Virus record (IMG/VR): IMGVR_UViG_2565956719_000002
Strand: one strand, 5' to 3'
DNA length: 64,000 bases
From: a virus
Taxonomy: Duplodnaviria; Heunggongvirae; Uroviricota; Caudoviricetes
Every line of letters starts with the position of its first letter. Within the stretch, counting starts at the first letter, position 1. Below, one piece after another: positions 25 to 51,292 of the stretch. The notes under the pieces were generated by a model. That model saw nothing but the letters and a program-made list of their open reading frames with translations. It did not search any database and had not been told where the DNA came from. The translations under genes were made by a program, and so were the position numbers.

Positions 25-234
25 ATGGCTTTCATTCCACCAACCATCGACGACGTTAGACATTGCTCTAACGCTTTATCTGTAGACCCCGCCGAAACCG
101 ACGCTGCCCGCGCCATTGCTGAACACTACTCAAAGATATCCAATCAGGAGTACCGCATCACCCAAGACGACCTGGATGATCTCACTGACACAATCGAATA
201 TCTCATGGCCACTAACCAACCAGACTCACAATAA
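25..234 (+). CDS. coi: Coi-like C1-inactivator (69 aa)
   Basis: 69-aa ORF immediately upstream of a 283-aa c1-like ORF on the same strand; size and position match P1 coi as I recall; no homology search possible. Confidence 0.4.
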   Translation: MAFIPPTIDDVRHCSNALSVDPAETDAARAIAEHYSKISNQEYRITQDDLDDLTDTIEYLMATNQPDSQ

Positions 235-250
235 ATGCACTAATAAATCT
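234..250 (+). promoter_or_regulatory. C1 operator-like site AATGCACTAATAAATCT (14/17 to ATTGCTCTAATAAATTT)
   Basis: motif match between coi and c1; same 17-mer family recurs across the window. Confidence 0.4.
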
Positions 251-2901: not shown

Positions 2902-4386
2902 TTACTCATTAAGCCATGCCAGAGCTTCATCAACCTGCGCTTCGTCTTCGACGCTAAGCACTTCATCCTGGGGAACATAATCCGCCAGCATAGCGAAACA
3001 ATATGTATCCCAATGGTCTGGTGAATGCAGGTTGAGTTTTTTCTTCATATCCTCCTTACTCATCACCTTCCATTGACCTGCGGAGTTAATCCCTACAGGG
3101 ATTTTCGACGCTTCCTCAATAGTTTCATTACCCTTATCCAGTCTCATACGACCAGATTTTACGGCCTCTGCGGCTTGAACGTTGGCATAAGCACGTTTAT
3201 CAAAGTACAGGCTCTTATCTTCACGGCTATGCATCTTTTTACCCCAGCGTATACGCTGTACGGTAATACCATAATACTCGTACATCAGATCCGCCGTTGC
3301 TTTACCCAGGCCATCGCCGTCTATCGCTATGGTAATATTTGGGAATCGCTCAGGATTACATTCTGCGAAAATTTTGGCGGCAAGCTGCGTTTCTGTAACG
3401 TCTGTGTATTCCAGCATTCGATAGTTGATTACACGGCGTTTATTTCTCTGGCCGGACACCATCATGATATTGATAACGGACTTATCCCGTCCCGTACCAC
3501 CAGCAACGTCCACACATGCAAGCCAGCCCCATCCTTTGGCAATCTTGACTTTCCGCCGCGTCGCACGTTCAACCTCATCACGTCCAAGAAGGAAGCCATC
3601 CTGTGATTTAGGGAATAGTCCGCGTACCTTAATCATGTACATAGGGTTATCACGCCCGCCGTACTCCGCCAGCTTCATTTTGATAAATGCTGGCGTTACC
3701 AGCGGTGATTCCTCACTGTTAAGCGTGATCGCCGTATAAACGCCATCAGGGTTACCAGGACGCTTGGCCAGTTTATGGTGAGTATCGTAGAAATAGCCGC
3801 TTGGGCGTGTAGGCTGTGACAGTAATAAGATGCGGTTATCCTGTCCGGTAAGAGCACCGGTGATGATACCGAAAGCTCTATCACTGACACCGGAGGCTTC
3901 ATCGATAATATACAGAAGATGATCTGCGTGTTCACCGGCGAGAGCTTCTTCACTTCCCAGACGAAAGCCCTTCGGTACTACAGTCCATACACCTTTACCA
4001 GTAACCTCATAGAAAGCGGTTTCTGTCAGAACAAAATAATCAGCAAGCCATGGAAAACGGCTGGTGGCAGTAGCCCAGTTTATCTTGATGTACTTGAATA
4101 TACCGGTCATTACCTGCTGAATTTTGTTCGCAACGATAATGGCGCGGGCACCGGGATACATGATTATGAACAACATGATCATGATAGAAGTCATGTCTGA
4201 TTTCCCGGTACCGTGACCAGACGAAACAGATGTCTTGCTACCCTGTTCCTGCACAGACTCAATAATCAGATCCTGCTGCCAGGTAGGTGTTTTGCCGAAC
4301 AAAACATCAGCGGCAGCAATCCAGTCATAACGATATAGCGCCACCAGCTCGCGCCAACGTGGATCCGTTACGCAACTTCTGGCCAT
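2902..4386 (-). CDS. pacB: terminase large subunit PacB (494 aa)
   Basis: Walker A-like SSGHGTGKS, terminase ATPase plus nuclease architecture; coupled to the upstream small subunit; length matches P1 PacB. Confidence 0.85.
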
Positions 4387-16062: not shown

Positions 16063-16791
16063 TTATTCCTGAATGCGCTTAAACTCGATTACCCACACCC
16101 AGGGATTAGCGTTCCAGCTTTCTTCACCATAGATGGATTCCCACAGGCGCTGGAACGCAACCTTGGCCATTGCGAAATCCCCCTTGGGAGTAAGGAATGT
16201 TCCCGGGTGATCAGGAAGCAAACTTCCAGCAGGCGGAACGCCCTCAGCCCTTGCATCGCATTCGCTGATATCGTTCAACCGTTCAACGCGCACGTTGGTA
16301 ATTTCCAACAGAATGCGTGATGCCCATCGCGGCATGTGAATTGATGGACGCCACCCACCATCAAACTTTTCATTCACAGTGTGAGGTTTCCAGTCGGCAT
16401 CATCGGGTATCGACCATAAGCCGTAATCACCAGGTTTTTGCTCGCAACTGGCCCGATAAATCCTTGCTGCGTTCTTCTCATCGCCACGACAAAGGTTGTC
16501 GTTCCAGTCCACACTGCAACCATCCTCATTGCCTAATATCGCCCATGTTTCACGAACCCAAATTCGATCGCCGACGATACCAAAGGGGCAATTGAAAACA
16601 CTGCTTACACCATCAGCCCCGTACCACTGAAAACCTGCACCAATTTCCCTAACCATCACTGGTGCTTCTGGACCAACTTCCGCAGGCTGATTTTTCATTA
16701 TCCGCCGCGTCTGCGTTTTCCTTCCTTCGAGGATGGCTCGGACCATCTCATCGTTGAAAATCATGCCGCGCTCTTTCACTTCGCCTTTCAT
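16063..16791 (-). CDS. ASCH domain protein (242 aa)
   Basis: N-terminal MIFNDEMVRAILEGRKTQTRR (GxKxxxxR). Confidence 0.5.
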   Translation of the reverse strand: MKGEVKERGMIFNDEMVRAILEGRKTQTRRIMKNQPAEVGPEAPVMVREIGAGFQWYGADGVSSVFNCPFGIVGDRIWVRETWAILGNEDGCSVDWNDNLCRGDEKNAARIYRASCEQKPGDYGLWSIPDDADWKPHTVNEKFDGGWRPSIHMPRWASRILLEITNVRVERLNDISECDARAEGVPPAGSLLPDHPGTFLTPKGDFAMAKVAFQRLWESIYGEESWNANPWVWVIEFKRIQE

Positions 16792-16800
16792 GCATCCCCC

Positions 16801-16887
16801 TTACCCATGCGCGACGATGCCGCCAAAAGTGATAGAGAACAGCCAGAAATAGATCGCGGCCATAATGATTTTGAATGCCGTGTTCAT
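16801..16887 (-). CDS. small hydrophobic peptide (28 aa, MNTAFKIIMAAIYFWLFSITFGGIVAHG)
   Basis: AGGAG RBS 9 nt upstream; not in the ORF track (below 60 aa); immediately upstream of the ASCH gene. Confidence 0.3.
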   Translation of the reverse strand: MNTAFKIIMAAIYFWLFSITFGGIVAHG

Positions 16888-16969
16888 ATTTTCAGCTCCT
16901 GTGATTGATTGGATACATGCCGCGCCTTACGGCATGTTTTTATTTTCACTTTCTCTGTTTTAAAAATCA

Positions 16970-16986
16970 AGATTTATTAGAGCAAT
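16970..16986 (-). promoter_or_regulatory. C1 operator-like site (ATTGCTCTAATAAATCT, 16/17)
   Basis: motif match upstream of the small peptide / ASCH operon. Confidence 0.55.
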
Positions 16987-17492
16987 TATTGTTGATGTAG
17001 AAGCGCGTTTTCATACTCCCTGACCATTAACGTAAGTACGCCGTGACTCCTGAAAACACGCGCCACTTCAATCTTATCTTCCAGCGCGAACGCAATTTTA
17101 CTTAGACCAATTTTCTTCAGGAGATCAATCTTTGCTGGACCGTCATTTCTGTCATCGGTGGCAGGACGCATAGATAGCAAAGGCTCCGCCCCATTTGTTA
17201 CGTGCTTACGCAACCAGGCTCGTGTTTTATCCCTGGCTATCTCACAGCGCCCGGTTACAAACCAGAGGGTGTAAATGCCGGACAACTGGCGCACCATATC
17301 AATAACTGGAGTGATGGGAGCATCAGTGTCACAGGCAAGGTTAAACTCGTTCCAGTGCTCTGTTAATGCACCTTTGCCAGGTGGTGGAAGTAAATGCAGC
17401 CTGTCTTCCGTTGCCTCTGATATCGTCCCATCAATATCTACTATGACGATGTACGGACGTTCCTGGTGTGCGTGTTTATTGAAAATACTCAA
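16986..17492 (-). CDS. HAD-family phosphatase-like protein (168 aa)
   Basis: IVIVDIDGTIS (DxDGT motif I). Confidence 0.5.
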   Translation of the reverse strand: MSIFNKHAHQERPYIVIVDIDGTISEATEDRLHLLPPPGKGALTEHWNEFNLACDTDAPITPVIDMVRQLSGIYTLWFVTGRCEIARDKTRAWLRKHVTNGAEPLLSMRPATDDRNDGPAKIDLLKKIGLSKIAFALEDKIEVARVFRSHGVLTLMVREYENALLHQQ

Positions 17493-51196: not shown

Positions 51197-51213
51197 GAAA
51201 TTTATTAGAGCAA
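51197..51213 (-). promoter_or_regulatory. C1 operator-like site (TTTGCTCTAATAAATTT, 16/17) upstream of kilA-repL
   Basis: motif match 70 bp upstream of kilA. Confidence 0.6.
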
Positions 51214-51292
51214 ATTTTTCTAACTCGATCCAGATCGGGTTGGTCGATCTGCTCAGAAACCTGCCAGTTTGCTGGCAGGTTTTTTTCTTTTG

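Follow-up and report, generated by a model that had tools for sequence, protein, structure and literature searches.

Here, we report a small gene in the DNA of a P1-like phage-plasmid (IMG/VR virus record IMGVR_UViG_2565956719_000002). The window is the whole 64,000-nucleotide (nt) stretch that was analyzed, numbered from its first letter. The gene is an open reading frame (ORF) of 28 codons on the minus strand, directly below the C1 operator OpmgT; judged by its pattern of substitution, it evolves as a protein-coding gene, and it is very probably real and translated. Our favored reading as a package, which we regard as moderately probable, is that it encodes a small inner-membrane protein and forms the first cistron of the C1-repressed OpmgT unit. 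Neither the reference P1 and P7 annotations nor the literature searched contain the peptide gene, and no described family includes it; automated pipelines have called it occasionally. The ORF and its ribosome-binding site lie as follows.

16887 to 16801, minus strand: 28-codon ORF (MNTAFKIIMAAIYFWLFSITFGGIVAHG), ATG to TAA, putative gene for a single-pass hydrophobic protein.
16900 to 16896, minus strand: Shine-Dalgarno (SD) sequence AGGAG, 8 nt (CTGAAAAT) before the ATG.

The 1.6 kb surrounding the ORF match phage P1 at 97 to 98% identity and Escherichia coli plasmids at up to 100%. Because DNA of the P1 group is almost identical, that group alone is uninformative on conservation. Diverged relatives were obtained by three routes: synteny with Pap led to Cronobacter phage JK004 (Pap, 72% identical), weak tblastn matches led to Salmonella plasmids of ~86 and 93 kb, and a leader-motif scan of viral contigs led to two metagenomic types (L033 and L055). 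These four sets, together with the E. coli P1 group, are the lineages compared below. Further variants, each on a contig of ~90 kb, came from a profile search of 5.8 billion proteins; a scan of genome contigs with Pap gave just two nearly identical E. coli loci that added no information. The resulting family has about a dozen variants with proteins of 28 to 65 amino acids (aa), in which M1, K6, A11, and W15 do not vary and position 13 holds either Y or F throughout. Proteins at the same place in relatives begin MHTVFKLAMAAFYIWIFTIVFTGIAKATPVN... (46 aa), MHLIFKLAITAFYAWMLTVVITSFKPDANMK... (53 aa), and MNTAFKLAMAAFYFWIFCIAFNGLVKAAPT... (48 aa). Copies on IncF plasmids were rejected as evidence of conservation, as they are IS1-truncated relics. 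On ~320 IncF-type plasmids, a relic running from codon 3 to the stop lies beside the 3' end of a type I hsdR gene (L004, ~3950 to 4085; L005); it is the homology "R124/3 downstream of hsdR" mentioned in the P1 record.

The near identity of the P1 group, within which conservation says little, and the omission of the ORF from the curated P1 annotation would both suit a chance ORF in a leader conserved for regulatory reasons. Codon-level comparison already largely refutes this explanation, which we hold to be highly improbable. Frame, start, SD, and hydrophobic pattern persist in diverged DNA, at identities down to 46 to 38 in 75 nt, and the other two frames acquire stops or lose similarity in diverged relatives. 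Between the window and Salmonella, synonymous differences are saturated (proportion of synonymous differences [pS], 0.84) and nonsynonymous differences are few (pN, 0.26); the third codon position is the most variable, identity at the three positions being 16, 20, and 10 of 25. Over the first 25 codons, only two changes separate the two Salmonella variants, both of them synonymous. In the comparison with JK004, what persists is chiefly the second codon position (18 of 25 codons), and hydrophobicity is thereby preserved. The P1 group (96 copies, 49 haplotypes) carries 8 segregating changes over 18.3 synonymous sites and 11 over 65.7 nonsynonymous sites (per-site ratio, 0.38; binomial P = 0.038 for a synonymous excess), with each nonsynonymous variant confined to 1 to 4 copies and the commonest synonymous variant present in 46. 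The ORF is under purifying selection. A preliminary description, made from the letters of the window alone, had named loss of the frame in homologous regions as an observation that would speak against the gene. This was looked for; frame, start, and SD are instead conserved in diverged regions together with a synonymous excess, the pattern of a candidate coding small ORF.

GGAG is retained in all lineages, 5 to 8 nt from the ATG. The AGGAG site had been noticed before, with a spacer given as 9 nt; the site stands, and its spacer is 8 nt. A 44-aa form of the protein would begin at an ATG within the hairpin described below, where it has no SD, and a TAA in the hairpin loop closes its frame in the window. 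In neither the Salmonella nor the Cronobacter relatives does an in-frame start lie upstream of the SD-proximal ATG. On these grounds, the 44-aa form was not accepted as a real product, and for the closed frame and the missing upstream starts, the SD-proximal ATG is taken as the shared start. Position 16929 of the window, in the hairpin loop, carries a minority T allele (14 of 96 copies; C in 81 and A in 1), and it is this T that makes the TAA.

Upstream, the ORF is headed by an operator and two predicted promoters.

16970 to 16986, minus strand: C1 operator OpmgT (former Op88), ATTGCTCTAATAAATCT, annotated in AF234172 as monovalent and C1-controlled.
16965 to 16970, minus strand: -35 hexamer TTGATT of promoter P1pmgT, predicted in the P1 record; shares the last operator base.
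16942 to 16947, minus strand: -10 hexamer GAAAAT of predicted P1pmgT, with comparative support.
16980 to 16985 (-35) and 16957 to 16962 (-10, TAAAAC), minus strand: alternative predicted promoter P2pmgT, with a -10 less well conserved than that of P1pmgT.

OpmgT matches the consensus ATTGCTCTAATAAATTT at 16 of 17 positions, and the window holds 12 C1-operator matches versus 0.25 expected by chance. An operator match was found in all diverged lineages, and a few P1-group haplotypes carry one substitution. Both sigma-70 promoters are predicted in AF234172 at the operator. The -35 of P1pmgT reads TTGATT or TTGTTT across lineages and is followed in every lineage by exactly 17 nt to the -10, whose variants (GAAAAT, AAGAAT, and AATAAT) always retain A2 and T6. 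All lineages share one layout: operator, -35, 17 nt, -10, 4 to 7 nt, hairpin, CAATCAATCA, GGAG, ATG, and small hydrophobic ORF. As this layout is constant, the predicted P1pmgT gains comparative support, and the predicted +1 would fall within ~3 bases of the first stem nucleotide. No transcript mapping of the locus was found in the accessible literature. With its 17-bp operator overlapping a sigma-70-type promoter, the unit is classed from its sequence as a C1-controlled early operon; derepression on C1 inactivation is taken from the annotation of the P1 record and from older binding studies cited in AF234172. The placing of the ORF as the first cistron after the operator at 16970 to 16986, made in the preliminary description, is borne out by the P1 annotation and by the comparative layout.

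Between promoter and SD lie two further elements.

16915 to 16937, minus strand: stem-loop at the predicted mRNA 5' end (8-bp stem, 7-nt loop), beginning 4 nt past the -10.
16902 to 16911, minus strand: leader box CAATCAATCA, between the hairpin and the SD.

A hairpin in the 5' leader, CATGCCG/CGGCATG, had been placed at 16916 to 16936; it is present there, and one more pair extends it to 16937 and 16915. Folded as RNA, it reaches -16.2 kcal/mol (z = -4.1 versus shuffles). Stems stand at the same position in the lineages, 4 to 7 nt beyond the -10, with four different sequences: ACATGCCG/CGGCATGT, AGGCCAC/GTGGCCT, GGCCGC/GCGGCC, and AGCCGC/GCGGCT. Joint treatment of all leaders with MAFFT and RNAalifold was rejected because it misaligned the P1 hairpin against the rest; covariation was therefore counted solely on the four non-P1 hairpins, which align gap-free. 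In this small sample, pairing is complete (100%) at the six core pairs, full compensation occurs at two positions, and the pairing breaks down if the 3' partners are slid. Across the 49 haplotypes of the P1 group, the stems are invariant, and the loop and the upstream spacer are variable. The hairpin is conserved as a structure, with covariation, and its distance to the 5' end is given by promoter prediction only.

We read the hairpin as a putative 5'-terminal mRNA stem-loop, its 5' end placed by the predicted promoter, and we lean narrowly toward a role as a 5' stabilizer. Stem-loops of the ompA 5' untranslated region type, on which Emory, Bouvet, and Belasco worked in 1992, reportedly stabilize mRNA from its 5' terminus. 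The two have in common a GC-rich hairpin, here 0 to 3 nt from the predicted 5' end, an unstructured leader, a strong SD, and conservation of structure rather than sequence. They differ in that the 5' end here is a predicted one and in that a 9-nt loop is near-conserved in four non-P1 lineages, which a pure stabilizer would not need. That loop (RYGCTWYCA) was observed in L007, L010, L033, and L055 despite their covarying stems. The box CAATCAATCA is identical in P1, JK004, and the Salmonella plasmids, relatives that were found independently of the motif, and it is unpaired in predicted folds. Constraint on the loop and on CAATCAATCA exceeds the need of a simple stabilizing hairpin.

At other C1-operator matches in the window, stem-loops were also observed close to a predicted -10. 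The match at 234 to 250 (plus strand) is followed by TATAAT and by a 12-bp stem (GGCCAACAACTC...GAGTTGTTGGCC) just before an ATG, the match at 51198 to 51214 (minus strand) is followed by AATCACCA-TTTCGAGC-TGGTGATT, GGAG, and ATG, and the operator pair 19063/19112 (19063 to 19128) flanks CGTGATG-AGTGTA-CATCACG. C1-controlled transcripts may repeatedly be built with a stem-loop near the 5' end.

On the opposite strand, the same hairpin takes on a different appearance.

16915 to 16947 (hairpin, 16915 to 16937), plus strand: hairpin followed by TTTTTATTTTC / TTTTTATTTT, intrinsic-terminator-like in a terminator scan, facing the pmgT side.

The statement in the preliminary description that the hairpin is not a terminator for the peptide transcript is supported by the comparison, with the T-run lying on the plus strand, where it complements the -10 GAAAAT together with AAAA. 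Only the P1 group has the T-run, which Salmonella, JK004, L033, and L055 lack, so that it is probably incidental or P1-group-specific; a conserved role of the hairpin therefore belongs to the sense strand. The motif nevertheless has the canonical form of an intrinsic terminator and could end an antisense RNA, which raises the idea of a type I toxin-antitoxin-like module in the P1 group: a membrane toxin checked by an antisense RNA of ~70 nt running from within the ORF to the plus-strand hairpin and T-run. In size and hydrophobicity, the peptide resembles type I toxins (TisB, Ibs, ShoB, Ldr, and Hok). A -10-like CATAAT lies at 16861 to 16866 (plus strand), ~50 nt upstream of the plus-strand hairpin, and RNA from it would cover the SD and the start codon. 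This CATAAT stands alone, with no -35, and a sigma-70 scan of the plus strand gave no antisense promoter. CATAAT, like the T-run, occurs in the P1 group only and is missing from the other lineages that keep the peptide. The sense promoter is controlled by a protein repressor and is not constitutive, the peptide has no sequence similarity to the toxins, and an Rfam scan of the region on both strands (E up to 10) gave chance-level matches only, including a 13.8-bit "GcvB" on the plus strand. We consider such a module very unlikely. The suggestion of a toxin-like factor, which had been made for the peptide at first, is not upheld by these results, nor by the natural occurrence of interrupted and truncated copies.

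The best 19-residue Kyte-Doolittle window of the peptide scores 2.10, and a score of at least 2.0 is reached by only 1.8% of the 387 ATG-initiated ORFs of 25 to 60 aa in the window. All family members have one hydrophobic stretch of ~19 residues (Kyte-Doolittle, 1.6 to 2.4) with an N-flank charge of +1; the tail, where present, is acidic (-1 to -3). The best-conserved positions (A8, A11, W15, S/T18, and G/T22) lie on one helical face. AlphaFold, run with the family alignment on the 46-aa relative, predicted a helix over residues 2 to 27 (pLDDT, 85 to 91 over the first 20) and a low-confidence tail. On the hydrophobic stretch, the modeled helix, and the single positive flank, the product is classed as a predicted single-pass inner-membrane protein, and it is likely that it forms a membrane helix. 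The comparative evidence supports the small hydrophobic (membrane) peptide gene first proposed from the window.

Profile searches of Pfam, PHROGs, NCBIfam, PADLOC, and PDB gave no family match, and an exhaustive HMMER scan of 1.84 billion representatives returned the family's own members only, plus two long spurious-looking proteins. Small membrane proteins encoded by phages are a known kind, and this is a new family among them. MgrB, MgtS, AcrZ, MgtR, KdpF, and CydX are small single-pass membrane-protein regulators and provide a functional analogy. They resemble the peptide family in length (28 to 53 aa), in having one transmembrane helix with a conserved small/polar and aromatic face, and in having been missed by classical annotation; they differ in showing no sequence similarity to the P1 peptide, which is phage-encoded and repressor-controlled.

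The longer relatives bring up the further idea of a signal peptide: the long forms would be cleaved, releasing an acidic periplasmic peptide of ~20 to 28 residues, and the 28-aa P1 form would be a cargo-less remnant. In Salmonella and L055, an n-h-c layout does end in AKA or VKA right before the tail, and the tails share a Y-[CS]-[DE] motif. What is conserved, however, is the hydrophobic segment and not the tail, the P1 group keeps that segment almost invariant with no tail, and JK004-type forms have no AXA motif at this place. We hold cleavage of this kind to be quite unlikely.

"Holin-like" had been the other first suggestion for the product. In favor of a holin, antiholin, or lysis-timing factor, the peptide is small and hydrophobic, and its expression would be restricted to lytic development. 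P1 lysis genes are late. The peptide gene is an early one, because its sigma-70-type promoter is occluded by the C1 operator, unlike the late promoter LPhot annotated further along the P1 record. The peptide has a single hydrophobic segment, its P1 form has no charged cytoplasmic C-terminal tail, and it matches no PHROG or Pfam holin family; late expression with an endolysin is likewise not a feature of this gene. The locus also borders a variable accessory region, of which the mapped genes are non-essential for plaque formation. A lysis function is scarcely probable, and the holin-like label finds no support here.

What follows the peptide stop varies, and in the window it is a second cistron.

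16063 to 16791, minus strand: pmgT-type gene (242 aa), second cistron; its ATG lies 9 nt past the peptide stop, with its own SD (GGGGGA).

Several downstream types were found: a pmgT-type or upf86.8-type gene 9 nt past the stop, a type I hsdR in convergent orientation without any co-directional gene (21 copies), and genes of further kinds. The diverged lineages have an unrelated gene of ~100 aa that abuts or overlaps the peptide stop; a counterpart was looked for in the window and was absent. The gap from the stop to the next gene is 9 nt in P1 and 4 nt in Salmonella, and JK004, L033, and L055 have ATGA or TGATG overlaps. Joints with unrelated DNA fall within ~5 nt of the stop (window, 16798 to 16803, directly after GGGTA; L006, L068, L112, and L115). 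Some joints delete the stop, giving "...IVAHGY..." read-through fusions with 9 to 37 extra residues. In two viral contigs (L086, 4719 to 8949; L035), homology stops inside the ORF after codon 19 and is followed by AT-rich DNA and a same-strand ORF of 1,211 aa that is invasin/intimin-like.

The genes from pmgT to humD have been described as "variable region 8" of P1-like phage-plasmids (PMC9603915). Our results agree with that description and with mosaic joints at gene boundaries, in that the ORF ends exactly where pmgT...humD starts and several independent joints lie near its stop; they differ in that the small ORF and the conserved promoter-hairpin-peptide left border were not recognized there (PMC9603915). 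Since conservation at the locus is limited to the operator, promoter, hairpin, and peptide, we take these as the fixed left border of the cargo region. CRISPR interference (CRISPRi) has scored pap, pmgT, pmgU, and pmgV as non-essential for plaque formation, with the peptide not among the targets, and CRISPRi roadblocks are polar on downstream genes (PMC10695390). The peptide gene is probably non-essential.

This arrangement would also suit a translated leader, an ORF that acts in cis by keeping Rho off the 5' region and feeding ribosomes to the cargo gene, with a peptide that itself does little or nothing. In all lineages, the stop is abutted or overlapped by the next gene, the cargo is exchanged exactly at the stop codon, and the peptide is identical in 69 of the 72 copies that precede pmgT- or upf86.8-type genes (changes in 3 of 72), versus amino acid changes in 11 of 21 copies with no co-directional gene. 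Against a purely cis-acting ORF, the amino acid pattern is kept (K6, A11, and W15 invariant) while synonymous sites saturate, hydrophobicity is maintained in every lineage although coupling alone would not need it, pmgT has an SD of its own, and the ORF stays open in all 21 copies that lack a co-directional downstream gene. We judge it unlikely that the ORF is a leader of this kind. The contrast between contexts suggests that constraint was relaxed once the block was detached from the phage operon, the copies not being phylogenetically independent; relaxed constraint would fit either a function of the peptide in the lytic cycle or a cis role in downstream expression.

Under the favored reading of a small inner-membrane protein heading the C1-repressed unit, the product would have one transmembrane helix, with a short positive cytoplasmic N terminus (K6) and the C terminus outside; distant relatives would append an acidic periplasmic tail of 18 to 25 residues. 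In the lysogen, C1 bound over the promoter -35 would keep the gene silent, and synthesis of the peptide would begin early, on infection or induction. The predicted transcript starts at the base of the GC hairpin. As a 5'-terminal stem-loop, the hairpin would most plausibly shield the mRNA from 5'-end-dependent decay, and the unstructured CAATCAATCA-GGAG leader would permit efficient initiation. Behind this fixed promoter-hairpin-peptide head, unrelated accessory genes would have been swapped repeatedly, with joints at the stop. The likeliest activity would be helix-helix binding to, and modulation of, a host or phage inner-membrane protein, with the conserved small/polar helix face mediating partner contact. 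A bolder version, which we hold to be doubtful, is that operator, promoter, hairpin, and peptide form a dedicated, conserved "cargo head" that is fixed, serves early expression, and ends right at the peptide stop, with accessory genes swapped repeatedly behind it; that the peptide is an early membrane effector with a specific host target (e.g., blocking a membrane-bound defense, entry, or division function in lytic growth); and that the near-conserved loop and CAATCAATCA are more than stabilizers, serving as recognition elements for a post-transcriptional regulator.

Several points weigh against the favored reading. The window-JK004 pair taken alone gives a dN/dS of ~0.7, and since the family is narrow, the selection statistics come from few independent comparisons. 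Viral contigs were collected by means of the leader pattern, which introduces a bias into how invariant the box, SD, and ATG look. The non-P1 hairpins have modest fold z-scores (-0.8 to -1.9). The amino acid changes seen in the convergent-hsdR context include G22D and G23D, which place Asp in the hydrophobic segment. Truncated and interrupted copies exist, and the peptide gene is therefore dispensable for maintenance of the element, and possibly dispensable generally. Literature searches (pmgT/Op88, the peptide, and P1 transcriptomics) returned no mention of the peptide. Transcription start, stabilizer role of the hairpin, translation, membrane insertion, and topology are all deduced from sequence, and we infer the molecular target outright.

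The curated P1 record AF234172 has the gene order pmgR-pmgS-pap, the OpmgT operator, and pmgT-pmgU-pmgV, and the 178 nt from operator to pmgT carry no annotated coding sequence in it. The P7 record likewise has no gene annotated in this gap. The Salmonella phage SJ46 record lists a 44-aa "membrane protein" at this place, and NCBI entries for the peptide comprise one 28-aa "hypothetical protein" and several entries named "membrane protein, partial." The ORF, first described as unlisted, is so in the reference P1 and P7 records and is listed in some automated ones. The upstream neighbor is the following.

16986 to 17492, minus strand: pap (HAD-type polynucleotide phosphatase), last gene of the pmgR-pmgS-pap unit, upstream context.

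Pap of the window is 93 to 98% identical to Pap of P1-group phages, matches Pfam HAD_PNKP (E = 3e-11), and is annotated in P1. Salmonella P1-like plasmids (L010 and L011, 2335 to 2500) have no pap, and the operator-hairpin-peptide block stands directly after pmgS. Downstream, the product of the pmgT-type gene belongs to PHROG 874, of unknown function. PmgT of reference P1 has 309 aa and overlaps pmgU (L001, 3309 to 4238); in the window (16063 to 16791, minus strand) and in most relatives, the protein has 241 to 242 aa and another C-terminal frame (...NPWVWVIEFKRIQE). A frameshift at pmgT probably sets the P1 reference record apart from the window and most relatives.

Few phages are annotated as thoroughly as P1, and P1-like phage-plasmids commonly carry resistance genes. 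If the favored reading is true, a conserved gene has been missing from the reference, and the early lytic program would have an extra player. The main variable cargo region would have its exact left border at the peptide stop, and the locus would present a compact modular expression head made up of a repressible promoter, a 5' stem-loop, and a strong ribosome-binding site. The peptide is also a clean test case for small-protein discovery.

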